DNA of 48,711 bases, from assembly GCA_048885865.1 (NCBI GenBank), contig JBHLLF010000021.1:1-48711 (forward strand), given 5' to 3'. The translations under genes and the position numbers were made by a program. The stretch's first letter is position 1. Each line of letters begins with the position of its first letter. The DNA comes from Candidatus Hermodarchaeota archaeon. Lineage in GTDB: Archaea; Asgardarchaeota; Thorarchaeia; Thorarchaeales; Thorarchaeaceae. The notes beneath the pieces were generated by a model that saw only the letters and a program-made list of their open reading frames with translations, made no database searches and was not told where the DNA came from. Below, one piece after another: positions 27,818 through 48,526 of the stretch.

Positions 27818-27904
27818 AAATTAAAAGGTGCTCAGCAGTGCGAGAAGGGCATTTCCCCCAAATACACCATCTCACTGCCGCCTCAACTTCTCTCTACCTC
27901 AGAA
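27818..27904 (-). repeat. 16S-trailer repeat copy R6 (~87 bp)
   Basis: Aligns to 48429-48513 with scattered substitutions and a small indel. Confidence 0.92.
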
Positions 27905-27948
27905 TTGATGTCTACGGTTTTCTTCACATGAAGTGCATGAGAAGATTT

Positions 27949-27989
27949 TTATGAATATTGATTCATTAGTTTTATTGAATCATGATTCA
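27949..27989. promoter_or_regulatory. Palindromic operator-like sites upstream of cdhA
   Basis: TTATGAATATTGATTCATTA (reverse complement of 8780-8799) plus perfect palindrome TGAATCATGATTCA at 27976-27989. Confidence 0.6.
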
Positions 27990-28156
27990 TAAATTTGATG
28001 GGCTTGATTGAGGAGGATTCCTGTGACAGCGTCTTTGCCTGGAGAGTCAGCTCAGGATCTTAAACGCTCCACTTTCATGACCTGGGGGGACTGGCGGTGC
28101 TATATGCCATGTTCTGAGGTCAATGCAACTGCAAAAGGAACAGGATTTGAATAAGT

Positions 28157-30499
28157 ATGAAAAAGAAGGCACACTTCAAAGCTGATGAAGCGAAGACCGC
28201 TTTAGGCATCTTCAAAGGTCTTGAGATCAGAATTGGTCAAATTGTGGATGACGAATGGGATGAGCCAATGGGCCCAACCCCCATGCCGAGTCCAACCGGT
28301 CTCCGCTCTTGGGACCACCAGCTCTTGTCGAAGTACCAACCATCCTACATGCCCTATTGTCAGGTCTGTTGCCTATGTACTTTCGGCAAATGTGACCTCT
28401 CTGGTGACAAACGAGGTGCTTGTGGGATTGACCTGAAAGGGCAACAGGCAAGGATTGTGCTTGCAGCAGCCAATATAGGTAATGCAGCACACCTGGCTCA
28501 TGCAAGACACTTGGTTGACCACTTAATTGATGAATTTGGTCCCCAGACCGATCTTATTCAAGGGCCTGGCACTGAGATACATGCACCTGTTTCACGATTG
28601 GCAACAGGAATGCGACCCAGAACTCTTGAGGATGCAAGCATTATCCTTGACTATTGCGAGAGCCAGCTGGCACACACACTCTCGGCAGTACATACTGGCC
28701 AAGAAGGAAGCTGGCTGGACTTCGAGAGCAAGGTTCTCCATGTTGGTATGATTGATCAAATAAGCATGGAGATTGCAGACCTTGTTCAGATTGCAACTTT
28801 GGATTTTCCAAAAGCCGATCCAGAAGCACCACTTGTGGACTCAGGCATGGGAATGATGGATACCAATAAGGCAATCATTCTGACCATTGGCCATAATATT
28901 GTACCAGCAGCATCGATAACTGACTATATTACTGAGAAAAAACTTGGAGGGCAGGTTGAGGTGGGCGGGATGTGCTGTACCGCTTGGGACATCACACGAC
29001 GTGATCCAAGCGCCAAGGTTGTTGGGCCAATCTCATGGCAGCTTAGATACATACGAAGCGGCAAGGCAGATGTAGTGGTAGTTGACGAACAATGTGTCCG
29101 GACTGATGTTGTCAGTGAGGCTCAAAAAGTGAAAGCGCCAGTCATTTCAACCAGTGACAAGGCTGTTATGGGACTGCCTGACAGATCTGGCGACTCAATT
29201 GACTCTATTGTGGAAGAACTTGTATCAGGGAAGATACCTGGCGCATATATCCATGACCACCATAAGGTCGGAGCGGTGGCGACCAAAGTAGCCCTCGCTG
29301 TAATGCCAAAGAGGAGGAAGATGAAATTCTTCCCGACAAAGAAGCAAATCCAGAAGATGGCGCAAGATTGCAGGAAATGCAGCGAGTGCATTCGCTCATG
29401 TCCAAATGACCAGCCAATCATGGACGCTGTGCTGGCGGCGCAGACAGGGAACTTTGAACCGTTACGTGATGTCTATCGTAACTGCATTGGATGTGCACGG
29501 TGTGAATCTGCTTGTCCCAATGGCTATGATTTGCACAGTTGGATGGTTGTTGCAGCAGAAAAAGACTGCAAAGATGAAATCTACAAGCTTCGAACAGGTA
29601 GAGGCGCAATTCAGGACACCGAGATTCGTAGTGTTGGGCAACCCATCGTCTTTGGTGAGATTCCTGGAGTGATTGCTCATGTTGGCTGCGCCAACTATCC
29701 AGGCGGAGGAGAAGCAATTCACGAAATGGCTGAGGAGTTCGCAAAGCGAAGATACATCATATTGACGTCTGGATGCGCAGCGATGTCAGCAGGCTCTGTA
29801 AGAGATGAGAACGGACAATCAATCTACGAGCGACGTGGTGGCGAATTTGATGCCGGTTGCGTAATCAATGTTGGCTCATGCGTATCCAACCCCCATATCG
29901 CTGGTGCTGCAATCAAGATTGCTGCGATATTTGCCAAGAGGAACTTACGAGGCAACTATGCAGAGATTGCTGATTATATCCACAATCGTGTGGGCGCAGT
30001 GGGGATATCTTGGGGTGCCATGTCACAAAAGGCTGCATCAATTGCTGCAGGATTCTGGAGACTCGGTGTTCCTGTGATTGTGGGACCACATGGCTCCAAA
30101 TATCGCAGGATGCTGCTTGGCAAAGCAGAGGAGGAGCGGGCTTGGACTGTCTATGATGCACGCACTGGAGAACGCGTGGTAACTGCTCCGGGTCCTGAAC
30201 ACCTATTCTATGCCGCTGAAACCGTCGCAGAAGCCAATGTGATGACAGCAAAGCTCTGTATTAGACCCAATGACACAAGTAAAGGACGATCCATCAAACT
30301 GAGCCACTATATTGACATCCACGAGAATTCGTATGGCTTCTTCCCTGAGGATGTTTGGAGATACATCCGTCGAGAATCGGATATTCCAATCACATTGAAG
30401 GACAAGATTCTAGCTCAGATGAAGGAGAACAAGTGGAAGGAAAGGACAATTCCAGATCCAACGCTTCTCAAGGAGCTAGTTATGGGAGGTGGCAAATAG
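28157..30499 (+). CDS. cdhA: CO dehydrogenase/acetyl-CoA decarbonylase-synthase alpha subunit
   Basis: EPMGPTPMP, CCLCTFGKCDL, GHN, CCT, two ferredoxin motifs, GSCVSNPH and IPDPT. Confidence 0.96.
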   Translation: MKKKAHFKADEAKTALGIFKGLEIRIGQIVDDEWDEPMGPTPMPSPTGLRSWDHQLLSKYQPSYMPYCQVCCLCTFGKCDLSGDKRGACGIDLKGQQARIVLAAANIGNAAHLAHARHLVDHLIDEFGPQTDLIQGPGTEIHAPVSRLATGMRPRTLEDASIILDYCESQLAHTLSAVHTGQEGSWLDFESKVLHVGMIDQISMEIADLVQIATLDFPKADPEAPLVDSGMGMMDTNKAIILTIGHNIVPAASITDYITEKKLGGQVEVGGMCCTAWDITRRDPSAKVVGPISWQLRYIRSGKADVVVVDEQCVRTDVVSEAQKVKAPVISTSDKAVMGLPDRSGDSIDSIVEELVSGKIPGAYIHDHHKVGAVATKVALAVMPKRRKMKFFPTKKQIQKMAQDCRKCSECIRSCPNDQPIMDAVLAAQTGNFEPLRDVYRNCIGCARCESACPNGYDLHSWMVVAAEKDCKDEIYKLRTGRGAIQDTEIRSVGQPIVFGEIPGVIAHVGCANYPGGGEAIHEMAEEFAKRRYIILTSGCAAMSAGSVRDENGQSIYERRGGEFDAGCVINVGSCVSNPHIAGAAIKIAAIFAKRNLRGNYAEIADYIHNRVGAVGISWGAMSQKAASIAAGFWRLGVPVIVGPHGSKYRRMLLGKAEEERAWTVYDARTGERVVTAPGPEHLFYAAETVAEANVMTAKLCIRPNDTSKGRSIKLSHYIDIHENSYGFFPEDVWRYIRRESDIPITLKDKILAQMKENKWKERTIPDPTLLKELVMGGGK

Positions 30500-30504
30500 C
30501 GGTG

Positions 30505-31056
30505 ATGAGACCAGTACCCTGGCAGACAGGGGAGATTTGTGGCCCTGATAGTGCAAAGTCACTCAACAAAGCCACTCAACTCAAAAGAACCTTCACAAAA
30601 TCAAAGCGGCCCTTATTGATTGTGGGATCAGATGCAGTTAACATGACACATGGGGAGGGTGACATGATTGACTATGCAATAGCCCTTTCAAAGGCGGCAA
30701 AGATACCTGTTGTTGCGACTGGAGGTGCAATCAAGACCTTTATTGAGAAGGGTTTTGAGGGCTGTAAATCAATGGGTGCAATGGAATTAGCAAACTCCCT
30801 TCAGGATGAATCGTGGTCAGGCCCCCATGAAAAGGGCCCTCACGATTTGATCTTGGTCTATGGCATCCCGTACTATATGCAATGGACGCTGCTATCTGCA
30901 GTCATGAATTTTGGAACCCATCTGACAAAGGTTTCTCTGGGGCGCTATTATCAACCACATGCAGATTGGTCATTCCCGAACATGAAAGAGAAGCAGTGGC
31001 ACGAGATTCTGGATGAAATTCTGGAGTTTGTGGGAGGAGGGAGGACCAAATCATAG
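30505..31056 (+). CDS. cdhB: CODH/ACDS epsilon subunit
   Basis: KRPLLIVG, HDL....G.PYY and YYQPHADWSFPN motifs; directly after cdhA. Confidence 0.92.
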   Translation: MRPVPWQTGEICGPDSAKSLNKATQLKRTFTKSKRPLLIVGSDAVNMTHGEGDMIDYAIALSKAAKIPVVATGGAIKTFIEKGFEGCKSMGAMELANSLQDESWSGPHEKGPHDLILVYGIPYYMQWTLLSAVMNFGTHLTKVSLGRYYQPHADWSFPNMKEKQWHEILDEILEFVGGGRTKS

Positions 31057-31088
31057 AGATTTTGATTAGAATTCACTGGAGATGATAC

Positions 31089-31313
31089 ATGATGCGATTG
31101 ACTGTTCTAATTCAAGCAGTTGGAAAGGAAATATGGGAAGCCTGCAAAGAAATTGAGGAAATTGAGGGTGTCAAGACTGTTAAGGTCGTAATCGGGACAT
31201 TTGATGCAATTGCATACGCAGAACTACCCGAGTTGACAGGATTGCGACAGCTCTTAGACAGCATTCATAGAACGGAGGGAATCATTAGGACTGAAACCTG
31301 TATTGCAATATGA
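31089..31313 (+). CDS. Stand-alone Lrp/AsnC ligand-binding domain protein
   Basis: IEGV....V.GTFDAIAYAE..TETCIA; paralogue of 10194. Confidence 0.8.
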   Translation: MMRLTVLIQAVGKEIWEACKEIEEIEGVKTVKVVIGTFDAIAYAELPELTGLRQLLDSIHRTEGIIRTETCIAI

Positions 31314-31449
31314 CTGAAAGTTGGAGAGCCATGAATTCACTTTGCATTTGATCGGAAGAAAACTCCAAAGATTTGGCTAAATATGATTTCCATTTATAAT
31401 TCAAGTCTGAGTAATATTGGACTCAAAATGCAAGGGGAAGGAATCTCTT

Positions 31450-31629
31450 CTAAAATTGCAGAGGATTTCCCTTGTCTGGCAGAAAAACATAGACGTTATA
31501 TTGGACATGCATAGGATCATCTTTGATGCGCCTAATATGGACAAACGCTCTCAGATGATTCTCTGCACATTGTTCTAGGTATTTTTCGACCTTGATTTCA
31601 CTTGTTGTTGTCAACAGATGCTGAATCAT
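31450..31629 (-). CDS. Small hypothetical protein
   Basis: Short ORF only. Confidence 0.35.
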   Translation of the reverse strand: MIQHLLTTTSEIKVEKYLEQCAENHLRAFVHIRRIKDDPMHVQYNVYVFLPDKGNPLQF

Positions 31630-31696
31630 TTTGATGCCCCCCAAGGGATAGATTCAAACTCTAGACGATAATACTGGCTTTTTGGTGGGAGTGACT

Positions 31697-32008
31697 TCAT
31701 GCTACCTCCTCAGCTTGGTCTACTTCCCACTCATCTTCCCCCAGCTCGTCCCTCAATAAACGAATCAATCGGTCTCTGGTCATTTCAAAGGTATCTTGCC
31801 TTAGGGCTGTTGCTATTACAGCCAAACTCCTGATAAGATCAAGAATCATGTATTCATTAGAGCTTGCCAGCCATTTCTCTTCCTCAAGTATCTGTTCTAC
31901 CTCTTCTAGATCTGCTGGCAGATTGATTTCCGAAAGAATGTGTATGGCAACTGTTCTAAGACGGTTTAGAGATTCCGCTAATAGATGGTTTCTTTCTGTT
32001 CCGACCAT
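31697..32008 (-). CDS. Acidic helical hypothetical protein
   Basis: Protein-like composition; GAGGGA upstream of MVGTE. Confidence 0.5.
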   Translation of the reverse strand: MVGTERNHLLAESLNRLRTVAIHILSEINLPADLEEVEQILEEEKWLASSNEYMILDLIRSLAVIATALRQDTFEMTRDRLIRLLRDELGEDEWEVDQAEEVA

Positions 32009-32493
32009 TCTAATCCCTCTTTCTTTCTGAAAGCACACCACAAACGGGCTTCTGTTTCTCGAATCGGTTGGACTGGCTCTCTGAATTTAGTATCATTCTT
32101 TCTCTCAATTGTATTCACTTCAAAGTCATTCTTTACATCTAATATGGCAGAAAAAACAGGATTCGGATTTACTACCCAACCTTTGATGTCCGTGATGCAT
32201 CCAAAGTAATGACCATGAAGGCATCAATTCTTGGACCGAAGGCTGCCTTCTCCAATGTTGTGTCTATTCTTAGTATATCTAGCAGTTAATGCGAAGACTT
32301 CGCTTATAAATATAATCAAAAGATTAATAGAACACTATAAATATTATACAGTTATTATATAAATTACTATCTTTAGAATTGCGACTCCGCACCTTGGAAT
32401 ATGAGTTGTTGTGACAGTACCAAGTGCATGGTTCAATCTGAAAGTATTTAGTCATGAATCTAGAGCCCGTGCAGTCAAGGACTGTTACTGATA

Positions 32494-33798
32494 TTGTCAG
32501 AGAACCCCATAGAACTAGATGGCGCAAATACCCCTAGTCCAAACTATGAAGGAAGCGTACTTACCGTACTAAATCTCTCTCTGGTGACGTTCCTAGTCAT
32601 CATTGGTCTGAGCATGGTCGCTCCAATTCTTCCCACATACGCAGAGAGCTTTCAAGTTTCATACACACTCGTTGGTTTTGTTGTGTCATCCTTTGCGGTA
32701 ATGCGAATGCTTCTTGATTTGCCTGCAGGTCTTTTCTCAAGGAGGTTTGACAAGAAGAAAATCATGATGTCAGGCTTGGTTCTCATCTCTACTTCATCCG
32801 TATTGGCTGGTTTCGCTCTCAACTATTCTACCCTTGTTATTGCTCGAATGATCGAGGGAGCAGGTTCAGCTCTGTATGTCACCACAGCAACAGTGTTCCT
32901 TGCTCAAATCTCTGGAGAGGAGAAGAGGGGACAATGGATGAGCCTTTACATGGGAATGTTGCTTCTCGGCTCCATCTTTGGGCCTACATTTGGAGGTATT
33001 ATTGCAGACACGTATGATATTCGTGCACCCTTTTTTGCCTACGCAATAATAACAGGCATTAGTTTGATTCCAACATTCGTATTGCCAAAGCTACCTAATT
33101 CCGGAAATGGGTCTTCTCTTTCGCGAAATCAAATCCTCCACGACATGAGGGAAATTCTATCCACCCCCTCATTCCTCTTGGTGACCTTTGCAGTCTTCAC
33201 AACATTCTTTCTGCGAACAGGGGTGAGAACTACACTAGTACCCCTATATGCGGCGAATAACTTAGGGCTAGACTCAGGTGCGATCGGCCTTATCCTTACT
33301 ATTGGCGGAGTAACAACAGCTCTTACAATTACACCGATGGGAAGTATTTCAGATAGAATTGGGAGAAAGATTCCCCTAGCATTATGTCTTATTCTGACTG
33401 CGGGAGTTACGTTACTAATCCCACTATCTACAGACCTATTCACGCTGTCCTTTGCTATGGCAGTATATGGAGCGGTCATTGGGTTCTCAGGTCCTAGCGC
33501 GGCCTATGTGACTGATGTATCACCACAGGACAAATTGGAGATATCCATGGGACTCTATCGGATGATCAGTGACTTTGGTTTCGTCGTGGGACCTCTTCTA
33601 CTTGGCCTTTTAGCAGACATAACAGCCACCCCTGTAGTTGGAGCATCCCACTCAGGTCTAATTGGGTTGGTTCCTTTTGTGGCGGCATCAATTATTCTTA
33701 TTGTAGCATTCTTTGTACTCCTAAAGGCTGATGATCCAGCAAGGGATAGAAACCAATTGAAGAACAGAGAAGTACAGATTTCTGACCCTCGAAGGTAG
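32494..33798 (+). CDS. MFS transporter (DHA1-like efflux)
   Basis: About 12 TM; SDRIGRK motif A; ARMIEGAG. Confidence 0.9.
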   Translation: MSENPIELDGANTPSPNYEGSVLTVLNLSLVTFLVIIGLSMVAPILPTYAESFQVSYTLVGFVVSSFAVMRMLLDLPAGLFSRRFDKKKIMMSGLVLISTSSVLAGFALNYSTLVIARMIEGAGSALYVTTATVFLAQISGEEKRGQWMSLYMGMLLLGSIFGPTFGGIIADTYDIRAPFFAYAIITGISLIPTFVLPKLPNSGNGSSLSRNQILHDMREILSTPSFLLVTFAVFTTFFLRTGVRTTLVPLYAANNLGLDSGAIGLILTIGGVTTALTITPMGSISDRIGRKIPLALCLILTAGVTLLIPLSTDLFTLSFAMAVYGAVIGFSGPSAAYVTDVSPQDKLEISMGLYRMISDFGFVVGPLLLGLLADITATPVVGASHSGLIGLVPFVAASIILIVAFFVLLKADDPARDRNQLKNREVQISDPRR

Positions 33799-33807
33799 TC
33801 TTCTAGC

Positions 33808-33890
33808 AAAATGAAACGAGAGGTTGATCAACGGTAGGCAATGGGAAATCCATCAAATACTCTATTCTACCGCCTCTACTTTCCTCCCCT
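33808..33890 (-). repeat. 16S-trailer repeat copy R5 (degenerate)
   Basis: Colinear blocks AAAATGAAA, AATACTCTAT and CCGCCTCTACTT as in 48428-48498; GCAATGGG.AATCCA.CAA shared with R4. Confidence 0.7.
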
Positions 33891-34380
33891 CCTTTATCCA
33901 ACGCAGAATCCTAGTTTTTGCCCATCGATAATGATTGGCGGAGTTCGCCAGAATGTAGCCAGCGATATTTTCAGCCCCAGTCCATTCGAATCTACCGACC
34001 TCAAACAGATCCTCTTCAGGGATGCCATTGATTGCCTCAAGCAACCTCTCGTAGGATGATTGAAATTCGGCCTTTACATCTTCAAGGATTCGATTTCGAT
34101 GTTTTTCGAAGACCTCCTGATTCAGGATGTGCAGTTGGCTCCATTTCAGACCTGGTGCAGGGGTTTCTGGCACTTCACCTTGGAGTCCTGCTTTGTACCA
34201 TCCAAGAAATCGCTGTTCCCAGTCAAAGAGATGGGCCATGATGTCCTTCACAGACCACTCCGCAATGACACCAGGCACTAGCATGTCTTCATCAGAAAGG
34301 GACGCGAGATTCTTTTCTAATCTGCGACGCTCAACATGGATCCTTTCTATGATGCTGTCCTTGGTCCTAAGTTTCTTCAT
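33862..34380 (-). CDS. ClbS/DfsB-like four-helix bundle (DinB superfamily) protein
   Basis: WSVKDIMAHLFDWE and N...HY.WA motifs. Confidence 0.8.
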   Translation of the reverse strand: MKKLRTKDSIIERIHVERRRLEKNLASLSDEDMLVPGVIAEWSVKDIMAHLFDWEQRFLGWYKAGLQGEVPETPAPGLKWSQLHILNQEVFEKHRNRILEDVKAEFQSSYERLLEAINGIPEEDLFEVGRFEWTGAENIAGYILANSANHYRWAKTRILRWIKEGRKVEAVE

Positions 34381-34461
34381 TTGGACTCACTCACGAGTAC
34401 CAATTACTACTGTACTTATCAGCAATAACTATTGAGTTCATAGCCATTATAGGGATAGCAC

Positions 34462-34593
34462 AAAATGAAAAGGGCGCTCAGCAATCAGCAATGGGCAATC
34501 CACCAATAATCAATCTCACCATCGTCTGCACTTCTTTCCACCTTAGAAAGCAAAGGTGACCCACCCGCCGCTTCCGCTACGGATACCTTGTTA
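34462..34593 (-). repeat. 16S-trailer repeat copy R4, including a displaced ~40-nt 16S 3'-end fragment
   Basis: GCTTCCGCTACGGATACCTTGTTA (34570-34593) is identical to 48546-48569; the rest is colinear with the trailer. Confidence 0.92.
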
Positions 34594-34649
34594 AATAGTG
34601 AAAGAAATCACAAGCAGAATAGACTCACTTCATATCAGAGGGTCGATAA

Positions 34650-35240
34650 ATGAATAGGATGAATCCCAAGGTTGATGCATATTTGAGCAAAGCCAAAGAG
34701 TGGCAGGAAGAATTCGAGAAATTGAGATTGATTATTCTTGATTGTGGGTTGACCGAGGAATTGAAGTGGGGCAAGCCTTGCTACACGTTTCAGAAAAGTA
34801 ACATAGTTATAATTCAAGGATTCAAGGAATACTGTGCGCTTCTTTTTTTCAAAGGCGCCTTGTTGAAAGATGCCAATGGTATTCTAATCAAACCAGGGGA
34901 GAGTACGCAGGCGGGGCGCCAGATTCGGTTCACCAATTCTCAACAAGTAGCTGAGATGGAACCAATCTTGAAGGACTATATTCATGAAGCCATTGAAGTG
35001 GAAAAAGCGGGTTTGAAGGTTGATTTTAAGTCGACTACAGAATTCAAAATTCCTGGGGAATTTCAAAGTAAGTTGGATGAAATCCCTGACTTGAAAACTG
35101 CTTTTGATGCATTGACGCCGGGACGGCAAAGAGCGTACATTCTCTATTTCTCTCAACCCAAACAATCCAAGACCAGGAATTCAAGGGTTGAAAAATATAT
35201 GCAGCAAATTCTCAATGGGAAAGGATTGAATGATCGTTAA
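34650..35240 (+). CDS. YdeI/OmpD-associated family (DUF1801) protein, bacterial type
   Basis: LTEELKWGKPCY, FFKGALL.D and F..LTPGRQR.Y motifs. Confidence 0.9.
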   Translation: MNRMNPKVDAYLSKAKEWQEEFEKLRLIILDCGLTEELKWGKPCYTFQKSNIVIIQGFKEYCALLFFKGALLKDANGILIKPGESTQAGRQIRFTNSQQVAEMEPILKDYIHEAIEVEKAGLKVDFKSTTEFKIPGEFQSKLDEIPDLKTAFDALTPGRQRAYILYFSQPKQSKTRNSRVEKYMQQILNGKGLNDR

Positions 35241-35276
35241 ATTCGATGATAGAATAAATTAATCGAAATTCAAGAT

Positions 35277-35365
35277 GCCGCCTCATTCTTCGTTCATTCG
35301 AGCTTCGAATCTACCAACCTCAAGCAAATCCACTTCAGCAATACTATTGAGTTCATAGCCATTAT
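35277..35365 (-). pseudogene. Internally deleted remnant duplicate of the ClbS/DfsB cassette
   Basis: 35304-35338 matches 33985-34019 (31/35); 35336-35365 matches 34420-34450 (one indel). Confidence 0.7.
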
Positions 35366-35432
35366 GATGTCAAATGCTATCTTTTTCAATGTCTTGAGAG
35401 AACCTGCTAAGGTTTCTAGTATTGATGGACTT

Positions 35433-36314
35433 CTACGGTTTCAGGTTTGTCAAGTCCAAACTGACCTCCCAAAGCCGTTTTGCGGTTACCAAGTCATAGG
35501 ACTCGTCTGAGGATTGCTTTTCTGACTTCTTCTCAAAGTATTTGCCTGTAACACCCTCGACCTCAGGGGAAGCTGCGAGATAGATTGAAGTCTCCGCACC
35601 TTTCTCTGGACTGCTTGCAAAGCGGCTAAAGATTCTATAGAGTATCCGAGAGAGTCGTGGGATGTCAGGATCCTTCTCAACAAGACCAGTAGCTACTGCA
35701 CCTGGATGGAGGCAATTAGCTGTGACCCCTGTGCCATCAAGTCTTCTTGCCAGCTCATAGGTAAACAGGACCAAAGCTAGTTTGCTCATATTATTCGCTC
35801 TCGAGCCATCATACTTGTTCTCTGACATCAGGTCATTGAAATCCATAGTTGCCCTTCTATGATAGGCACCGGACACATTGACTATGCGTGATGGCGCACT
35901 CGCTTTGAGTTTCTCAATGAGGAGATTCGTCAATAGGAAAGGAGCCAAGTAATTGACGGCGAATGTTATTTCAGTACCCTCTTCTGTGATAGTTCTCCTC
36001 GTCCTGTACGTTCCCGCATTGTTAACTAAGATATGAAGAGCTTGATAGCGATTCTCAAACTCTTTGGCAAGGCTTCGAATAGAATCCTGTAATGACAAGT
36101 CGCATAATAGAAAGCTGACTTGGTCATTACCTGTCTTGCTAACAATTTCTTTAACTGCTTCCTCTGCTTTTGGTCCATTGCGACACACTAGCACTACATT
36201 TGCACCCATATTCGCAAGTCCAATAGCTGTCGCCTTTCCAATTCCGGAGCTAGCTCCTGTGACCATGCAGACCTTGTGTTTCAAATACTCTGACTTACCA
36301 TGATTTTCAGTCAA
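35433..36314 (-). CDS. SDR oxidoreductase (retinol dehydrogenase-like)
   Basis: TGASSGIG, NNAG, RIVNVS and LHPG.V.T motifs; likely TTG start after GGAAGGTGA. Confidence 0.88.
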   Translation of the reverse strand: MTENHGKSEYLKHKVCMVTGASSGIGKATAIGLANMGANVVLVCRNGPKAEEAVKEIVSKTGNDQVSFLLCDLSLQDSIRSLAKEFENRYQALHILVNNAGTYRTRRTITEEGTEITFAVNYLAPFLLTNLLIEKLKASAPSRIVNVSGAYHRRATMDFNDLMSENKYDGSRANNMSKLALVLFTYELARRLDGTGVTANCLHPGAVATGLVEKDPDIPRLSRILYRIFSRFASSPEKGAETSIYLAASPEVEGVTGKYFEKKSEKQSSDESYDLVTAKRLWEVSLDLTNLKP

Positions 36315-36423
36315 ATCGTTCACCTTCCTCTCAATCGCAACAATTGCAGTTGATTCATATTCTGATGATGTGCTGCTAATCTTCCAGAAACAAGAAGCCG
36401 TGCCACTGGCACGACTATTGTTA

Positions 36424-36633
36424 CTAATTTGTAATTTGATCGAGGCCAGCAATACCTAGACAAGCCAGAGCAATCCCAGCAAGGGATTGATCGACTGGTT
36501 GACCAACTATTGGTAGTACGATTATAACAACTCCCATCGCCAATGCAATTGCATATAGTACAAGGATTACCAACTTCTTCGGGGAAAGCCCCTCAGATGC
36601 CAAATCCTCTCTAATCTCTTCCATTTCTCTCAT
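36424..36633 (-). CDS. Small 2-TM membrane protein
   Basis: IALAMGV.IIVL and GIALACLGIAGL segments. Confidence 0.55.
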   Translation of the reverse strand: MREMEEIREDLASEGLSPKKLVILVLYAIALAMGVVIIVLPIVGQPVDQSLAGIALACLGIAGLDQITN

Positions 36634-40323: not shown

Positions 40324-40328
40324 TTGGC

Positions 40329-41537
40329 CTACCTGCCTTCGTATTTTCCTCGCTTTTCCATTGCATCCAGAACTCTTTGTTGAGCAATTTCCTTTGCTAT
40401 CACTCGTGGACTTAGACCTCTATCTAGAGCCTGCTCCAATACAAGTCGGGTATTGCTACTAATTTTGGATTCTATCATGGAGAATGCCTCAGCTTCATTT
40501 CCCCTCTTGTATTCCACATACGAGCCTATGACTCCGCCAGCATTCGCAAGAAAGTCTGGTATGATAATCGTCCCCTTCTTCCATAGCAACTCTTCTGCCC
40601 GGGGATTTGTAGCGTTGTTTGCCCCCTCAATGATATATCTGGCCTTAATCGAGTCATAGGTATTCAGATTTATGACATCCCCCACTGCACATGGAATTAA
40701 AATGTCGCAGTCGATACTCAGTATTTCATCTCGGGGCAGTATTTGACCAAACCTATAGTTCTTGACAGAGTCTCTTTCTCGTGTTGCATAGGAATACTTC
40801 TCAGCATTCTCGATATCAATCCCATCAGGATTGTATGTTGTCCCCCAGTAGTCGTTAAGTGCAACTATTTTAGCTCCTTTTGCAGCAAGGTATTTTGCAA
40901 TTCCCAAACCAACATTACCAAAGCCTTGGATAACGATCCTGTTCTCAGATAGATCTTCACAGAGACCGAGATGATTACAGAGAATTCCAAGTCCAGTTTC
41001 TAGAGCAATTCCTACTCCAAATCCGGTTGTACCAAGCTCATGGGGGATTCCACCCATCGAAGCCGGCTTGCCTGTAGCAGCTTTAAGGTCTCCGACCTCA
41101 TCAACAAATGCTGCCACCTCATTTTCTCCAACATTCATATCTGGAGCCGCAATATATTGTGATGGTACAAGAGGCGCTATTTTACTTGCGAATTCCCTGA
41201 TGAATCTGATTTTGTCGATTTCGAACGGATTCGCTCTGATTCCGGATTTTGCCCCTCCAAATGGGATGTCTGCAAGTGCACATTTCCAAGTCATAGCTCG
41301 TGCCAACCGAAATACTTCCAGAGGAGTAACTGTAGGAGATATTCGAATGCCCCCTTTGCCAGGTCCAAGAGCCGTATTATCAATGACGAGAACTCCCTGC
41401 ATTTGAGTTTCCGGATCATAGACTTGGATTACTTCCTCCGGCCCCCAGATGTCGAGAAAGGCTGAAACATTAACCTGATTCAAAGCGTCTATTATACCTT
41501 CAGCATCGATAACTTCGGTGTCCCTTTGAACAGACAT
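40329..41537 (-). CDS. Second Glu/Leu/Phe/Val dehydrogenase
   Basis: GPGKGGIR, MTWK, GGAKSG, GFGNVG and NAGGVI.SY.E motifs. Confidence 0.92.
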   Translation of the reverse strand: MSVQRDTEVIDAEGIIDALNQVNVSAFLDIWGPEEVIQVYDPETQMQGVLVIDNTALGPGKGGIRISPTVTPLEVFRLARAMTWKCALADIPFGGAKSGIRANPFEIDKIRFIREFASKIAPLVPSQYIAAPDMNVGENEVAAFVDEVGDLKAATGKPASMGGIPHELGTTGFGVGIALETGLGILCNHLGLCEDLSENRIVIQGFGNVGLGIAKYLAAKGAKIVALNDYWGTTYNPDGIDIENAEKYSYATRERDSVKNYRFGQILPRDEILSIDCDILIPCAVGDVINLNTYDSIKARYIIEGANNATNPRAEELLWKKGTIIIPDFLANAGGVIGSYVEYKRGNEAEAFSMIESKISSNTRLVLEQALDRGLSPRVIAKEIAQQRVLDAMEKRGKYEGR

Positions 41538-41754
41538 CTTTATCACTTGAGTACAGAATGAAACACATGCTATATAGAAAAGACGCCATAGGCATGTACA
41601 ATTGTGCCATCTCTATATAAGATTCAACCACATTGATGCCATAAATGCATAACCTCTTTCACAAAATCGGTATATTAAAATGTACAAATTTGGCACATTA
41701 TCAATAGCAATATGCCTTCATAATACAATCCCTAGTTGTTGCGAGACTGTCAAA

Positions 41755-42831
41755 ATGACTGATCCACTTAATGACCCGTTGAATGTTGAATTGCTCAAGC
41801 TAGTCTGCTCAGGGCAGGGGGTCGAGATTAATGTGAGTGAACTTGCTGAAACTTTCAGAAAACATAGGAACACTATTTCATCACGAATTGATAATATCTT
41901 CAGGTATGAAATTGTAGACAAACCATTTCATCCTTTGCCATTACTGTTCAATCAGTACCCCTTTCTAGTTATTGAAAAATGCGAGTTCCCGCGTGATATT
42001 AGAACTAACAAGTGGATTGAATTGGATCCTTTCATATGGGCGGCATTCTTCTTTAGAGATGAAGAGTATAATACTCTATTAATCGAACTCCATAAAGACC
42101 TGTTTCATTACCAAACGTGGAAAGATCGTATTGTTGATGAGGGACTAGTTTCTATCAAGCGTGGTCGTGACTATATACATTCGCAAGCAATCTACGTTGA
42201 TACGAAAGCGATGATCAAATATGACCCTTCATCAAATTTGCATGTAATTAAGGAGAATCAGCGAGAGGGCATTCTTGGAGAAATAAATGGTCTGGAAATG
42301 GACAATACATACCTGAACCTTATAGAAGCTCTCCTTCGAGGGAGAGGAGTATGGACTAATCCTAATGCTCTTGCCAAAAGATTAGGGATACACCGCAGAA
42401 CTGCTCAACGACGCTTGAAGCTTTTGCTAGATAAGCGAATAATCTCACCAGCAGTGTCTCGATTTCCACGAATTTGGGTACCTCCTGAATACTTCATGGT
42501 GCTTTCATTACTCGAAATAAAATCACACAAAGAGCAGATTCAAAATGCGCTTTCTGCTGACCCGCATATTTCTTTCTTAGCGAAGACCGTCGCTGACCGC
42601 TATAATTACGTCAGCATTGCTGGATTCTACAAAGTACGAGACCATCTGAATTGGGAGGAGGAGTATAGCCAGAGGTTCTCAGAATCACTCGGCGCTGTAA
42701 AGAATGTCTATTTGTCGCCGGCTATGACTTTCTCGATTCACCAACAGTTTGTCGCACTCACATACCTGGACCAACTAGCAGACCAGCTACGAGGAAGGGA
42801 ACTACTCAGTAGCATGAGAGGTCGTGGTTGA
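41755..42831 (+). CDS. Tandem wHTH/Lrp-like regulator, paralogue of 44897-45940
   Basis: N.S.L....KHRNTI..R and LA..LG.HRRT.Q.R HTH segments. Confidence 0.7.
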   Translation: MTDPLNDPLNVELLKLVCSGQGVEINVSELAETFRKHRNTISSRIDNIFRYEIVDKPFHPLPLLFNQYPFLVIEKCEFPRDIRTNKWIELDPFIWAAFFFRDEEYNTLLIELHKDLFHYQTWKDRIVDEGLVSIKRGRDYIHSQAIYVDTKAMIKYDPSSNLHVIKENQREGILGEINGLEMDNTYLNLIEALLRGRGVWTNPNALAKRLGIHRRTAQRRLKLLLDKRIISPAVSRFPRIWVPPEYFMVLSLLEIKSHKEQIQNALSADPHISFLAKTVADRYNYVSIAGFYKVRDHLNWEEEYSQRFSESLGAVKNVYLSPAMTFSIHQQFVALTYLDQLADQLRGRELLSSMRGRG

Positions 42832-42966
42832 TTCAACATGACTCTCTTGATTCTATGAGCTACTAGGTTTCTTGCTCCAATGATAGTGAAGACCGTTTAT
42901 GATCATACAAGAGAGCTACTCGGGAAACAGAACTTCTCCAATAATTCCCTTTATTCATTTACCTCA

Positions 42967-43725
42967 CTAAAAGAACATCACTTTGGTTAGGGTAAAGAGA
43001 CCTATCGCTATCACTGCTACGCCTATTACCTCTCTTAATTTATGCATACTAATCTTTGAAACAGTCAATGCTGCGAACGGCGTTGCTAGCAATGCTCCTG
43101 CACAGATAGGTAACAATATCGTCAATACGTCTATGTTTCCAATAAAGAGGTATCCAATTACTCCCATTACGCACACCGCCGCCTCAGATATTGAGGTTAC
43201 AGCAATGGCAGCCTTTCCGTCAACCCCACTGAGTAATTGCCCGGAAACAGATACCGGACCATATCCTCCACCTGATATTCCTTTATTGAAGGCACATAAT
43301 AGCCCTATTGAAGCCATCTTCTTTAACTGGTATCCACCCACGTGCTTTCTTCTGAGCAATACCAGACTTCCCATCGCAATCACAAGAAATGCAATATAGA
43401 CCTTGACGTAGAATGACGGAATTGAGATAGCAAAGACCATAGCAACAGCAATTCCTAGAACCCCTGACAACACAAGTACTCTCAAAGAAACCCTAGCGAT
43501 CTTGTTATTGACAATATCCACATTTCCTGCTTGATTATGGAAATAACCACTAGCGAACCCCGTCAGCATCTCACTTACCAATATCGCCGGGACAATAATC
43601 AGTGGCTCAAATCCGAAAATTATGAGCAGTGGTGTCATTATCGTGCCATAGCCCCCACCCAAAGTGGAATCTACCAGTTCCAAGAAGAATGCTAACAGGA
43701 CTAGCTCCAAGACTAAATTAGTCAG
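42967..43725 (-). CDS. TauE/SafE (TSUP) sulfite exporter family protein
   Basis: VDSTLGGGYG...P.L and SGGGYGP motifs; about 8 TM. Confidence 0.88.
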   Translation of the reverse strand: MTNLVLELVLLAFFLELVDSTLGGGYGTIMTPLLIIFGFEPLIIVPAILVSEMLTGFASGYFHNQAGNVDIVNNKIARVSLRVLVLSGVLGIAVAMVFAISIPSFYVKVYIAFLVIAMGSLVLLRRKHVGGYQLKKMASIGLLCAFNKGISGGGYGPVSVSGQLLSGVDGKAAIAVTSISEAAVCVMGVIGYLFIGNIDVLTILLPICAGALLATPFAALTVSKISMHKLREVIGVAVIAIGLFTLTKVMFF

Positions 43726-43939
43726 GAACCTCACCCCTCGCTTCATATTCATGTTTCAGTGGCTGGATTGTACCACTTCTAGTTCGATGTTTTTTCATTC
43801 TACGTTCCCACTCTTTCTCCTTACATGACTTCTTGGGCTTCTTCGGCTTAGACCTGAGAGCGATCCAACCATAGTAGATGACAAGTCCCAGAATCACGAA
43901 GAAGATGTAGAAGAACCACCTGTCCGAGAAGGTCGACAT
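43718..43939 (-). CDS. Small membrane protein with basic tail
   Basis: N-terminal TM; overlaps the TSUP start. Confidence 0.55.
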   Translation of the reverse strand: MSTFSDRWFFYIFFVILGLVIYYGWIALRSKPKKPKKSCKEKEWERRMKKHRTRSGTIQPLKHEYEARGEVPD

Positions 43940-43990
43940 TCATATTCCCCCTTCACATCTACAGCAGAGATGCCTACTTAGCTCGTTCCA

Positions 43991-44710
43991 CTAGGCGACT
44001 ACGGCTGCATGTGGTCCCTTTCTGATTTTGGTTTCCATTCTTTCGATTCGCTTTAGGATTCGATCAAGAGTGTGTATCATCCCTTCAAGGTTCTCATCTA
44101 GAGCGCCATGGGTCATGATTTTCTCTACATTCAGTAGGGCAAGCTGCGCCTCATATATCGTGTCATAGACCGTGCTTGGATACTTGACTATGTAGTCCTC
44201 AGTCAAGACATATCTTATCAGGTCGAGTATCTCCTCTGTCCCGAAGACCTTCATATCAATGGCCCTTCGGGGACACCCGGCAACACAAACACCGCAGCCT
44301 CGACATCTTTCCTGACGTACGGTTATGCATCTGTTGACTATTATCGGTGCATCCCATGGACACAAGTCAGTACAAAGACCACATAGTATGCAACCTTTGG
44401 CACCATCCATCCTAACCTCTATTGTAGACACTAGGGCGAGCTCTGTTGCGTTTAGTGCTTCTTTTGGGTCCCCAATTATCTCAGCCTCAGATTCTGTAAG
44501 CGTTTTTCTCTCAGGGTCATGCAGAATGGTGGGAACAACTCCTCGTTTCTTCAGCTCTCTTTCAATCTTGGAAACATAAACGGAACACGTGCTTATTGTA
44601 TTCTTCAAAGAAACTAACATCAGTTTGAGGTCGCTGTCAGAATGAATGGCCGCCCGTCTAGGGAGCATTAAACTGAACGAGTGTCTTCTTCCAGATACAG
44701 CGTCGGTCAT
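43991..44710 (-). CDS. 2x[4Fe-4S] ferredoxin-domain protein flanked by helical regions
   Basis: CILCGLCTDLCP and CRGCGVCVAGCP motifs. Confidence 0.8.
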   Translation of the reverse strand: MTDAVSGRRHSFSLMLPRRAAIHSDSDLKLMLVSLKNTISTCSVYVSKIERELKKRGVVPTILHDPERKTLTESEAEIIGDPKEALNATELALVSTIEVRMDGAKGCILCGLCTDLCPWDAPIIVNRCITVRQERCRGCGVCVAGCPRRAIDMKVFGTEEILDLIRYVLTEDYIVKYPSTVYDTIYEAQLALLNVEKIMTHGALDENLEGMIHTLDRILKRIERMETKIRKGPHAAVVA

Positions 44711-44896
44711 TATGTTTCGGTTAAGATGTGGAATGATTTGTAGATATATGACAGCTACAAATTCTGGTTTGAAAATGTCACATGTGCTCCTTTTGGAGTT
44801 TTCAATTCAATCATATTGAACATACTGCGCCTATATAACGTGCATATTTGCACCTCAAGGGTAAATATCCTAATGGTAGAATCATTCTTTTCAGTC

Positions 44897-45940
44897 CTAA
44901 TTGGATGGTTTCTTTCTTCGCAATTGCTTCAGTCTTCGCTCTATTATCCCCAAGGACACCTTCTGTTGGTTGAGGAACAACCGCATCTTAGGTAGGAGAA
45001 GGGTTATGGCCGCCATGCCAAAGCAACCCGGATAGATGTTAGAGTATTTCTCTTCCCAAATGAGATGGTCTTCAATACTACGATAATTCGCAAAAAGAAG
45101 GTAATTATACCTACCCATACTTGTTCTGTAAATGATGCTCAAGTGTGGGTCTTTCATCCATTCTACCAGAATATCTTCACGGTGATTCTTCATTTCAATA
45201 AGGGAGAATGCAAGGATAAATCCTGGCGGGCTAAAGAACTGCGGAAACCTACACAAGGGATTAAGAATAATCCCTGCTCTTGTCATCTTTGCTATCCTGT
45301 TTTGCACAGCCCGTCTACTCAAGCCCACATCTCTCGACAGAAAACTCTCGTTGACCTTTATCCCTCTTCCTTCCAGAAGATGCCTTAGGATTTCGAAATC
45401 TAGACCCTTTAGTTCATAGCCATCAATGTCAGCATACCCCTGTTTCTCGATCTCCTCCTCTATCAGTCTTAGCCCTATGTTGGGTTCATATTTGATTATG
45501 AGTTTGTTTGAGAAGAAGAGTACACTCGACGGGAATCTTGTGTTTCGCGAAGGGACTACTCCTTTTTCCACAAGCGACTCCCTCCACATATAGTGCCCAT
45601 AGAGATCCGTGTGAAACTCGAGCCGCATCGTGTTGAATTCCTCTTCTCTTATCTTGAAAGAAGCGAAGATTCGTTCGTCGTCTTTCATCCATTGCTCGAT
45701 TTTTTTGCTGGGAGGCAGGTCTGCCCGGGTGACAACCAGCAAAGGGTATTCATTTAGTAAGTGGATGAAAGGGAATACAGGCCGATCGATAATTCCTTGT
45801 TCGAGAAGAACAGTCACCCTCTCCTTTATGGTATTTCTGTGTCTTCTCAGAAGCCTCGACAGCATGCTGATGTTTATTTCCACTCCCTTTCCAGAGCAGA
45901 TGTTCTTGAGAAGGAGCAAGTTCCGTTCATCATTAAGCAA
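44897..45940 (-). CDS. Tandem wHTH/Lrp-like regulator, paralogue of 41755-42831
   Basis: LNDERNL.LLK.ICSG.GVEIN.S.L and YP.LV..EE.NT..E.H.DL shared with the paralogue. Confidence 0.7.
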   Translation of the reverse strand: MLNDERNLLLLKNICSGKGVEINISMLSRLLRRHRNTIKERVTVLLEQGIIDRPVFPFIHLLNEYPLLVVTRADLPPSKKIEQWMKDDERIFASFKIREEEFNTMRLEFHTDLYGHYMWRESLVEKGVVPSRNTRFPSSVLFFSNKLIIKYEPNIGLRLIEEEIEKQGYADIDGYELKGLDFEILRHLLEGRGIKVNESFLSRDVGLSRRAVQNRIAKMTRAGIILNPLCRFPQFFSPPGFILAFSLIEMKNHREDILVEWMKDPHLSIIYRTSMGRYNYLLFANYRSIEDHLIWEEKYSNIYPGCFGMAAITLLLPKMRLFLNQQKVSLGIIERRLKQLRRKKPSN

Positions 45941-46075
45941 TGCACAAAACCCTCTCTATATCTGAATTGGTAATTATATCACAATATGATTCCCATTGAC
46001 ATCAGAAAAAGGCTGTGATTGATGTGCAGTTTTAGATAATATTGGACTATGATATACCATTCAGTACATAGAAGA

Positions 46076-46372
46076 CTAAAATTCCACCATCTCTTGAGCA
46101 AGCTTACGTGTCTGCCCTATCATTCTCTCAACTCTCTTATCGCTAATCCTGTAGAGTTTCCTAACACCATCCTTTCGCACTCGTAATATTCCAGCTCTGA
46201 CCATTTGAGTCAGATAAGCAGAAACTGTAGATTGAGCCAGACCAAATCGCGGGAATATATCACATTGGCATTGCTCACCGTCCAAGAGAAAGTCAACGAT
46301 ATCTAACCGAACAGGATTACCAAGCGCTTTGTGAAAGTCCGCTCTCCATTTATTCTCCTTATTCATGTTCAT
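46076..46372 (-). CDS. arsR: ArsR/SmtB family regulator
   Basis: KALGNPVRL.I, GEQCQCD and QSTVS motifs; next to acr3. Confidence 0.85.
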   Translation of the reverse strand: MNMNKENKWRADFHKALGNPVRLDIVDFLLDGEQCQCDIFPRFGLAQSTVSAYLTQMVRAGILRVRKDGVRKLYRISDKRVERMIGQTRKLAQEMVEF

Positions 46373-46445
46373 CCGGTATCTCTCTCCATATCTTCATTCA
46401 AGCATGGCACTGCCAATAAACCGCTTTGGCTTGACTGATTCGAAA

Positions 46446-47525
46446 CTACATAGGTTTTCCTTTCCAGTAGTTTCTCCTTTGCAGGTACTTGCCCAGGTAA
46501 ACAATACCTAGCATCACTGGCACCTCCCAAAACAGTCCCATTGTAGTCCCTAGCGCGGCAATGGATCCGACCCCGTAAATCGCGATTGCTGTCGCGATAG
46601 CAATCTCAAAATGACTTGATGAACCAATGATGACGGTAATCACTCCCTCTCGGTATGCGAGGTTTGCCATTCGTGTCACTAGAAGGTTGTAACCAACTAC
46701 TATTGCAAATCCAATCAAGAGCGGAATCGAAACAAGAACTAGGAGATCGGGATTCTCCAGCATGACTCTCCCGTTCAATGAGAAAAGTACCACTAGAGTG
46801 GTCAAGAGAGCTACTAGCGCCAATTTCCCCACAGCTGGGCGATATTTCTCATCAAACCATTCTATCCCTTTCCAAGGCACAAGTGATTTCCTTGTGATGA
46901 TTCCGAGCGCCAAGGGTATTCCTATGAATACAAGTACTGAAACAAACAATGCCCATCGATCTATGGGAATGGCGGAGATACCAGTAAAAAGCGCAACAAT
47001 TGGTGCATAGAGGACTATTATTGTAGCTGTGTTTAGAGTTGTATTGACAACATTTTGCTCCTGGTTTCCCTCAGCCAGATAACCCCAGACCAGGACCATT
47101 GCAGTGCAGGGACTCGAGGACAGCAAGATTATAGCTACTATCAGTTGTGCGTTGCCAGCCAGAAAGAGATTTGCGAGAGCAAATCCAACTATAGGAGCAA
47201 TAATCCAATTAGAAAACAATGTGAGAATGATTGGTTTTGGATTCTTGCCGAGTTTCCTTAGCTCAGACGCCTGAATGTTGAGCATTGCTGGGTACATCAT
47301 CAGGAACAAGCAAATTCCGATGGGCACTGAGATATTACCGATTTTCCAAGAATCAATGGCTTCGCCTATGCCCGGTATAGTCAATGAAAGAAGAATTCCA
47401 GCAATCATGCAGATTGCAACCCAGAGAGGGAGATACTTCTCAAAGATTCCAAGTTCTCTCTCTGGTTCAACCAGCTTTTCGGTACTGGTTTGAGGGGCTG
47501 ACTCATGTTGATTGTCCTCGTCCAT
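46446..47525 (-). CDS. acr3: Acr3 arsenite efflux transporter
   Basis: EKYL..WV, MMYP, PCTAMV.VW, SS.FE.AIA and EVPVM motifs. Confidence 0.92.
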   Translation of the reverse strand: MDEDNQHESAPQTSTEKLVEPERELGIFEKYLPLWVAICMIAGILLSLTIPGIGEAIDSWKIGNISVPIGICLFLMMYPAMLNIQASELRKLGKNPKPIILTLFSNWIIAPIVGFALANLFLAGNAQLIVAIILLSSSPCTAMVLVWGYLAEGNQEQNVVNTTLNTATIIVLYAPIVALFTGISAIPIDRWALFVSVLVFIGIPLALGIITRKSLVPWKGIEWFDEKYRPAVGKLALVALLTTLVVLFSLNGRVMLENPDLLVLVSIPLLIGFAIVVGYNLLVTRMANLAYREGVITVIIGSSSHFEIAIATAIAIYGVGSIAALGTTMGLFWEVPVMLGIVYLGKYLQRRNYWKGKPM

Positions 47526-47604
47526 GTTTCCCACCAATTCGTGTGAATGAGTTTCATCGAATAATCGCGATATATAAATAAATGGAGTCCGATTTGATAC
47601 TATA

Positions 47605-47684
47605 GAAGATGAGGGTGCTCAGCAATGTGAGAAGGGCATTTCCCCAATACTCTATCTCACCGCCGCCTACACTTCTCTCTGACC
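47605..47684 (-). repeat. 16S-trailer repeat copy R1 (~80 bp)
   Basis: 47612-47668 is identical (57 bp) to 48436-48492, followed by ACTTCTCTCT. Confidence 0.95.
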
Positions 47685-47709
47685 TGATGTATCTGTACAG
47701 ACCAGAAAC

Positions 47710-48273
47710 TCACTCTATAGGATGCTTCCCTACAGACCAGGCATCACCAATGGCTTCGCCGATCGCCCAGTATTTGTCACCAGGTTTAGTGAAAACGAAG
47801 GGATCAATCTTCTTTGGATCAACATCATCATCGGTCATGCAGCGTTCATCGGCATAGGCATGCTGGACTTCTCCAAGAACAAGTACACTCGCCGGCAGCT
47901 CGATGAGATCATAGACTGAACACTCCACACAGAAAGGACACTCTTGAATCATGGGGACATTCTCAAGTTTGCCATAGAAGATGTTGAAGAGTATTGACTT
48001 GTCGACGCTTCTTCCAGAATAAAGTCCACAGTAGTCGGTCTTCTCGACTAAGTCCGTGCTGGGAATGTTTATGCTGAAGCTGCCATTCTGTTTTATACCC
48101 TCAAGGGTGTACCTCTTCTTGCTTATGGCAACGCCCCAGATGTTTGGACTCCGGTTAAGACGATTGAACCAAGCAACAGTAATGAAGTTGGGACGGCCTT
48201 CTACTATTGAACCTACAAGGGCAATGGGCTTCGGAAACGGAGCAATCTCGGGACTAATCTCTATCTTAGACAT
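47710..48273 (-). CDS. Flavin reductase family protein
   Basis: G.PNF..VAW, FS.NIP, TDYCG..SG and PMI.ECP motifs; start MSKIE. Confidence 0.88.
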   Translation of the reverse strand: MSKIEISPEIAPFPKPIALVGSIVEGRPNFITVAWFNRLNRSPNIWGVAISKKRYTLEGIKQNGSFSINIPSTDLVEKTDYCGLYSGRSVDKSILFNIFYGKLENVPMIQECPFCVECSVYDLIELPASVLVLGEVQHAYADERCMTDDDVDPKKIDPFVFTKPGDKYWAIGEAIGDAWSVGKHPIE

Positions 48274-48427
48274 GATTTGCAGCCCGCTGAAACGGATTGA
48301 GTACGTAAGAATGATGGATGGACGACCTTTTAGGCTATCCTGTAAGCAAATAGTTTGAGGGGGGCCAGTCATTCCTTGTTTTCGGACCTGCCCCGAACTC
48401 ATTAACCACAAGCTCAGCAACAATTTG

Positions 48428-48526
48428 AAAATGAAAGGGTGCTCAGCAATGTGAGAAGGGCATTTCCCCAATACTCTATCTCACCGCCGCCTCTACTTCT
48501 CTCTACCTTAGAAGGTAAAGAAGCTT
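48428..48526 (-). other. 16S rRNA 3' trailer (two hairpins + U-rich end); master copy of the repeat
   Basis: Minus strand: CUUCU-UUACCU/AGGUAG-AGAAG and CGGCGGUGAGA/UCUCAC-AU-UGCUG stems, ending CCCUUUCAUUUU. Confidence 0.75.

Follow-up and report, generated by a model that had tools for sequence, protein, structure and literature searches.

Asgard archaea carry loci in which a diverged Cas1 homologue is paired with TnpB; these aCas1-TnpB loci (Cas1H-Asgard-1 and -2) are often flanked by repeats and have been proposed to be a transposon (PMC10691335; Altae-Tran et al. 2023). The published account names no target and suggests a variable stretch upstream of GTTCACTCA as a possible guide; its main text contains none of the terms "rRNA", "16S" and "tRNA", and it describes no multi-guide arrays, protective inserts or cargo arrays (PMC10691335). 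The TnpB proteins of IS200/IS605 elements derive their guide from the element's flank, cut vacant sites and are thought to drive homologous repair (PMC10690162). Here, we analyze a 48,711-nt contig of a Candidatus Hermodarchaeota archaeon (JBHLLF010000021.1; hereafter, the window, meaning this whole stretch), in which displaced copies of the 16S rRNA 3' trailer separate cassettes of accessory genes, together with aCas1-TnpB elements of its relatives whose guides match the 3' end of the 16S gene. We regard the array as the probable scar record of serial homing by a 16S-targeting aCas1-TnpB element, in which the trailer was displaced, the core genes were lost and the cassettes were later shuffled. 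The gene pair itself was already known, being published but experimentally uncharacterized, and the contribution of the present analysis is a test of how the element and the array are connected. Targeted literature searches outside subscription journals returned no account of such arrays, of 16S targeting, of multi-guide arrays or of protective inserts.

The elements resemble the published loci in the pairing of a Cas1 homologue with TnpB and in a TTCACTC(A) motif downstream of tnpB, but the target-matching sequence here follows a short repeat located downstream of that motif. With IS200/IS605 elements and IStrons they have in common a junction in which a motif is directly followed by the guide, as in the relative G088, and a TnpB with a flank-derived guide and a target motif, which here is GRAT at the four target sites (throughout, G000 denotes the genome under study, other G-numbers its relatives, C-numbers contigs and L-numbers loci). 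In contrast to those elements, the partner here is a Cas1-fold protein of 1,700 amino acids and not a Y1 or serine transposase, and the target does not vary, being an essential gene whose end would be exchanged; unlike in IStrons, protection would come from small inserts in the target rather than from self-splicing of the element. Casposons are likewise mobile elements that sit at conserved genes and contain an integrase of the Cas1 family, whereas the flanking direct repeats here are long and variable instead of short, constant target duplications, and the core comprises two genes, aCas1 and tnpB, which are the only ones conserved across the mapped loci; a third gene of polymerase size is not conserved there (no search aimed at the PolB family was made).

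The window is the entire contig C21 of the G000 bin (3.58 Mb, 87% complete); homologues that were traced bear the label Candidatus Thorarchaeota. The 3' end of the 16S gene lies at 48527-48711 on the minus strand (Rfam RF01959), and the contig terminates within the last 185 nt of the gene, precisely at the -185 insert site described below; the middle part of the G000 16S gene is unassembled. The 99-nt 3' trailer of this gene (48428-48526) has six further copies in one orientation, which have a common distal core and are truncated to different extents on the side proximal to 16S. The coordinates and an nhmmer search thus bore out the six co-oriented copies with fixed distal end and variable extents that a preliminary description of the window, made from its letters alone, had reported. 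The features are as follows:

48527-48711, minus strand: 16S rRNA 3' end, insert-free allele (Rfam RF01959, insert map, guide matches)
48428-48526, minus strand: live 3' trailer, comprising the 3' arm of the processing stem and a U-rich end, with the distal ~22 nt forming the core of all copies
47605/47612-47685, minus strand: displaced copy 1, 96%; distal part resembling the host trailer, ~25 bp on the proximal side linked to the cassette
38127-38151, minus strand: displaced copy 2, core only (25 bp, 96%)
36808-36826, minus strand: displaced copy 3, core only (19 bp, 100%)
34462-34593, minus strand: displaced copy 4, the trailer together with 43 nt from the 16S end (to 48569), 132 bp
33808-~33885, minus strand: displaced copy 5, diverged (nhmmer E 6e-10)
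27818-27904, minus strand: displaced copy 6, the most distal recognizable one (87 bp, 87% to the live trailer)

The G000-wide profile search placed trailer copies on C21 alone, and its only other match of note was the complementary 5' leader at C61:247-315, next to a chance core with four mismatches in C25; the copies are hence confined to the region downstream of 16S. The leader pairs with the trailer in a duplex of -68.9 kcal/mol (computed for the near-identical G010 allele) whose base contains the shared core, and the repeat therefore corresponds to the 3' arm of this pre-16S processing stem, together with the terminator. The statement that the first 27 kb lack copies stood insofar as none is recognizable there, and has to be qualified by a faint remnant at ~15680-15697. 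Gene order in 1-27500 differs among relatives, and since several of its genes adjoin trailer copies in other genomes, the array, considered together with this remnant, probably once reached into the first 27 kb and has since decayed.

A contig that ends inside 16S and derives from a metagenome bin calls for scrutiny of its assembly next to the rRNA. The array is not a chimera, because contigs of the independent Logan assembly span the copies: run X1, which may be the source sample, has contigs across the copies at 33808, 34462, 36808 and 38127, and runs X2 and X6, the latter from another study, have contigs across 33808 and 34462. Moreover, the copies are diverged from one another and the same architecture recurs in dozens of genomes, leaving an assembly artefact with a very small probability. 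The Logan data also contain joints at the repeats that appear to be strain variants (47586 to 48428, 38151 to 48428 and 47680 to 46086), which may stem from related strains.

Matches to the trailer or the 16S end were detected in 14 of the 16 genomes of the genus, and in most genera of the family the core occurs in multiple co-oriented copies on single contigs, reaching 15 copies within 30 kb in G015. The one-contig assembly G004 contains the array without an adjacent 16S match. In eight genomes (G026, G034, G031, G037, G058, G038, G042 and G054; three members of the family and five genomes of other families), no copies were found within ~19 kb behind 16S. Single displaced copies of the 16S end or trailer were observed in three other Asgard families, at L057 (G040 C23):3863-3969, L154 (G048) and L157 (G050).

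In 11 relatives (G006, G018, G023, G027, G071, G074, G091, G100, G102, G103 and G104), aCas1 and tnpB, a divergent gene pair, form the unit that comes first behind the trailer, and in G011 and G017 the pair lies deeper within the array. The distance from the aCas1 stop codon to the trailer core amounts to 38-75 nt in the 11 loci measured, including an internal copy in G011, and the same spacing was found in G023, where the contig ends within the core. The aCas1 protein has ~1,700 amino acids. In an AlphaFold model of residues 1-900 (mean predicted local distance difference test score, pLDDT, 87.9), residues 1-214 match the catalytic domain of Cas1 (Z 13.2, root-mean-square deviation [rmsd] 3.6, 178 aligned residues), casposase is matched with Z 11.1 (rmsd 3.8, 189 aligned), and residues 580-860 are predicted to adopt a RecA-like fold (Z ~11). 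The Cas1-type residues E69, H156 and D167, as well as the residues E371, D384 and K414 of a PD-(D/E)xK-type nuclease, are invariant in 37 of 37 homologues. No match was obtained in Pfam, NCBIfam, PDB sequences or the Atlas, and for the C-terminal half no fold match reached E 0.001, with generic helical-repeat matches restricted to the last 150 residues.

The partner is TnpB (PF07282), in which the RuvC-II glutamate is replaced by glycine and an alternative glutamate precedes the zinc finger (D..G..E..D); such a rearranged RuvC is regarded as probably active (PMC10691335). The tnpB gene is adjacent to the aCas1 gene and has the TTCACTC(A) motif 3' of it. Pfam detected no Y1 or serine TnpA in aCas1, the partner of TnpB, which instead folds as Cas1 and RecA-like, and we saw no terminal inverted repeat at the aCas1 end. 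In several elements the aCas1-tnpB intergenic region is complementary to the scaffold 3' of tnpB (for example, L054:14685-14760 and 16441-16500). This pairing across tnpB looks tracrRNA-like in five elements, for G011 being equalled by 1 of 300 shuffles, and as a lead it would be compatible with a split tracrRNA/crRNA layout like that of Cas12f.

In the region 3' of tnpB, the scaffold is followed by one to five units, each made of an AGGTCGG repeat and 9-27 nt matching the 3' region of 16S. Counted from the 16S 3' end, the guide targets lie at -182 (antisense), -154, -34 (antisense) and -12, and every target is preceded 5' by the GRAT motif, the flank being always CGGAT or AGAAT. Three of these targets, each with GRAT, are present in the 16S end of the window (-154 sense, -34 antisense and -12 sense); over its last 185 nt this allele is free of inserts, and guides of G006 (18 nt), G018 (20 nt) and G102 (16 nt) match it with the motif intact. 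Alleles elsewhere in the family exhibit hairpin inserts of 29-33 nt at -185/-191, -144/-155, -42 and -10, inside the motif or the seed, and the carriers of the gene pair mostly have such ~30-nt inserts in the sites matched by guides. For 14 of the 16 guides the carrier's own allele matches over at most 10 nt, whereas the window allele matches over up to 20.

Some guides are in turn suited to alleles bearing inserts. One guide of G017 fits only the insert-bearing allele of G011 (16 nt), and the guide array of L148 (G080 C138, ~5000-5200) comprises at least five units, three of which are directed to the -42 site in variant versions resembling different insert-bearing alleles. These matches suggest an arms race between guides and inserts. 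At L145 (G019 C23:1796-5600), two divergent tnpB genes without an aCas1 match stand behind 16S, with a guide fitting the insert-bearing -42 allele; we read this locus as a putative TnpB-only derivative. Among the displaced copies, none extends beyond 16S -43 (copy 4 of the window, 34462-34593, has the greatest extent among the copies seen across the family), none contains the -42 insert, and many of those retaining the 16S end have the -10 insert. This pattern fits the displacement of alleles that could be cut at the next unprotected site.

The inserts are hairpins at conserved rRNA sites, which is a feature of bulge-helix-bulge (BHB) microintrons; folding of single sequences did not resolve a canonical BHB. 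They recall the archaeal 16S introns and homing endonucleases of Thermoproteales (PMC4496867) and collaborative homing, in which short hairpin inserts at conserved 16S sites would likewise block the nuclease; here, in contrast, the nuclease would be RNA-guided, is encoded outside the rRNA gene and has several guides, some of them against insert-bearing alleles. In L013 (G034 C2), an 89-nt insert at 16S -23 consists of three tandem hairpins of ~30 nt. Inserts at different 16S sites have loop motifs in common, which hints that microintrons may move between sites.

Several observations tie these elements to the arrays. The repeat of G088 runs straight into a displaced 16S end, made up of its last 12 nt and the complete trailer, a layout that fits what would be expected if the old 16S end becomes the flank of the element. 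Stubs of 50-900 bp, comprising the aCas1 3' end and its linker, abut internal copies on their distal side in G103 (four), G027 (five) and G104, G018 and G008 (one each), and those units are therefore decayed elements; in G011, an aCas1 stub lies beside the live trailer. On a tree, the 16S-linked proteins cluster, with 2 changes against 10.4 when shuffled. Displaced fragments are also left by paralogues that target mvhD or tRNAs, and in the case of mvhD there are arrays of them. G000 itself contains a second orphan array at C56:11501-13990, where the live mvhD, the target of aCas1-TnpB paralogues in relatives, precedes three copies of its 3' tail, all in the same orientation, and at C9:26102-36720 and C23:5273-16803 displaced 3' fragments of its tRNA-Gly and tRNA-Tyr genes lie kilobases from the genes themselves; in five relatives, aCas1-TnpB elements are found next to tRNA-Gly. 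At L094 (G080 C62, ~10900-11250), the guide of a paralogous element matches a displaced tRNA 5' end, and the intact neighboring tRNA has an altered 5' end plus an insert and thus appears to be protected by recoding.

The stubs also bear on a route that the preliminary description had offered, namely that the copies are 5'-truncated reverse transcripts of the pre-rRNA 3' end. Such an origin would account for a fixed copy end coinciding with the U-rich transcript end and a variable opposite end, but internal repeats run past the terminator into aCas1 stubs, the limit at -43 is a hard one, copies retain the -10 insert, and rRNA-derived cDNA would not bring cargo genes. Since, in addition, no reverse transcriptase (RVT_1, PF00078) was found in G000 or five relatives, we give this claim up as very improbable.

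From these data we propose the following course of events. TnpB would find and cut an insert-free 16S end such as that of the window, and the protected 16S end of the donor would be installed in its place together with the trailer, the element and the cargo, the near side being joined via 16S homology and the far side via a joint made by aCas1 or by trailer homology. The resident trailer would thereby be pushed outward with its proximal end trimmed near the cut; its distal end would stay whole because it is still joined to the older cassettes. Later, aCas1 and tnpB would be deleted while the trailer and cargo units remain, and recombination among the copies may delete, move and exchange cassettes. 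Cargo-only units such as those of the window may have arrived with a full element or been moved later in trans. The anatomy, the co-location, the complementarity of guides and inserts, the stubs and the shuffling are seen in the sequences themselves; we infer the cutting, the splicing of inserts, which way the replacement runs and any catalysis by aCas1. Support was obtained for the earlier suggestion that genes were added one after another behind 16S, each event displacing the trailer then present, as well as for the confinement of the copies to this locus and for gene content that differs between relatives at the copy boundaries.

A Cas1 fold with intact catalytic residues and a polar array could also be read as a CRISPR-like process, in which gene-sized spacers are inserted behind 16S by aCas1 while the resident trailer, serving as the repeat, is copied in the manner of a long target-site duplication and never gives way to another trailer. 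The resemblance of copies to the trailer of their own genome would suit such duplication, as G018 copies are 93-95% like their own trailer and the nearest copy in G000 is 96-99% like its own. However, long and short trailer types alternate within one array in G011, where the short type adjoins the live long trailer, and copy lengths are not constant, ranging from 19 to ~230 bp and moving together with the cassette between genomes. We thus deem duplication of a permanent trailer unlikely.

A further alternative dispenses with the element, explaining the array by homology-facilitated illegitimate recombination or by Campbell-type integration of looped-out circles, with aCas1-TnpB as a mere passenger at a hot spot. 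Traces of such recombination are clear: the strain-level joints skip cassettes at repeats, and a cassette keeps its junction with its 16S-distal copy while the remainder of that copy may be the trailer type of another lineage. One and the same cassette carries different trailer types depending on the host, and the crossovers therefore fall inside the repeats. G000, moreover, has an array and no element. Nevertheless, this explanation does not account for guides directed to the 16S end, inserts in exactly those sites, the -43 limit, aCas1 stubs at consecutive copies or arrays at other aCas1-TnpB targets, nor for the eight genomes that are free of copies behind 16S. As the sole cause we consider it improbable, and it probably performs the later shuffling. 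Of the earlier proposal of homology-facilitated illegitimate recombination, what holds is that 16S probably anchors one side, whereas the likely driver is aCas1-TnpB with its guides; this driver was invisible to the first reading because the gene pair is missing from the window and from the assembly.

Several findings weigh against serial homing by the element as the source of the array. No aCas1, tnpB or gene stub was detected in G000 by tblastn, six-frame profile search, PF07282 or a DNA search of the window for stubs, in an assembly that is 87% complete and lacks the 16S middle, and the array of G000 is thus an orphan with no engine in its assembly; a guide-like match at C63:8016 lies within a coding sequence, has no scaffold and was discarded as chance. 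Most cassettes of this genus likewise have no element remnant, and their origin by this route is therefore extrapolated from other genera and from G006, G008 and G011. The likeness of aCas1 to Cas1 resides in fold and motif only, being missed by sequence profiles. Immunity is imperfect: in G091 and G071 the -182 guide agrees with the carrier's allele over 12 nt, and in G104 a guide whose repeat is degenerate shows a self-match of 17 nt. Finally, among 146 copy ends, 61 lie 5-40 nt into the trailer, 22 reach 16S and 57 lie further out, a spread that makes the clustering near predicted cuts only suggestive. At cargo-only cassettes the candidate element-end motif is weak, with ACTCA at 28-33 nt in 15 of 139 flanks; TGC beside the core in 42 of 146 copies is weak as well, and no element-end motif is claimed.

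Between the copies of the window, gene labels proposed earlier were upheld by Pfam, and the cassettes, numbered outward from 16S, are as follows:

47686-48427: cassette 1, flavin reductase (47710-48273, minus strand)
38152-47604: cassette 2, two Glu/Leu/Phe/Val dehydrogenases (gdh), helix-turn-helix (HTH) regulators, TauE, ferredoxin, arsR and an acr3-type transporter
36827-38126: cassette 3, HTH_10 regulator and an NTF2-like (Lumazine_bd_2) gene
34594-36807: cassette 4, YdeI/OmpD-associated gene and a short-chain dehydrogenase/reductase (SDR)
33862-34461: cassette 5, DUF1706 gene (ClbS/DfsB, DinB-like; Pfam)
27905-33807: cassette 6, cdhA, cdhB, small open reading frames (ORFs) and a major facilitator superfamily (MFS) transporter

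Cassette order differs between genomes with most breaks at repeats, which agrees with the expectation that gene content should vary among relatives exactly there, and the arsR-acr3, MFS, YdeI, HTH-NTF2 and flavin reductase units each have changed neighbors in other genomes. The flavin reductase unit occurs at other array positions in G001, G014 and G008; the 9.4-kb gdh-acr3 block, second in G000, is the most distal one in G015, and arsR-acr3 forms its own cassette in G010 and G004. Cassette 3 is common to G015, G008 and G016 with different neighbors, the YdeI junction at 16S -43 is constant in six genomes, and the MFS and cdhAB genes of cassette 6 stand as separate units in relatives. Pieces of the DUF1706 cassette are repeated just 3' of YdeI (33985-34031/35304-35350 and 34428-34450/35343-35365), which suggests the trace of a deleted second copy. 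A perfect 20-bp inverted pair (8780-8799/27949-27968), near-palindromic and AT-rich, lies upstream of a 280-aa ORF (8853) and of cdhA and is probably the operator of a shared regulator.

Across the family, cassettes are mostly below 3 kb with one to three genes, and such accessory cassettes between repeats, arranged in a polar array and shuffled among strains, resemble those of integrons. Tandem islands with displaced gene ends are, moreover, known at tRNA genes, and there too the element restores the target gene and leaves the old end at its far side. These parallels would favor tyrosine-integrase islands or an integron with the 16S end as attachment site. However, the repeats here are displaced rRNA trailer and not attC hairpins, no IntI is present, and instead of a fixed attC/attI crossover both the crossover point and gene orientation vary (124 against 91 in the two orientations). 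In comparison with the tRNA islands, a guide RNA would choose the 16S target, no tyrosine integrase is involved and the displaced piece has a variable proximal end. PF00589 is absent from G000, G015, G010 and G103, and its matches in G011 and G018 lie on non-array contigs. A tyrosine integrase, already judged a poor fit from the window alone and found neither in G000 nor on the array contigs of the five relatives, is consequently a most unlikely agent.

Taken further, aCas1 may be an RNA-guided integrase, an idea we advance tentatively and hold somewhat less probable than its negation: TnpB with a multi-guide RNA would select a site in an essential gene, the Cas1 domain would join multi-kilobase cargo and the element would supply a protected end, so that 16S, mvhD and tRNAs would serve as integron-like capture platforms while guides and 30-nt microintrons co-evolve in an arms race over the 16S gene. 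The Asgard Cas1 homologues gain a concrete target, a GRAT motif, a guide boundary and a product, and with these in hand the steering of a Cas1-family enzyme by TnpB is now directly testable, which bears on the origin of CRISPR adaptation and on the programmable insertion of large DNA. The guides offer a possible reason for the many 30-nt inserts in Thorarchaeota 16S, and the inserts help explain broken rRNA assemblies; two of the insert sites lie in the 3'-terminal region used by common 16S primers. For the family, the region behind 16S represents a family-wide Asgard hot spot of gene acquisition, which moves metabolic and resistance genes such as cdhAB, gdh and acr3.

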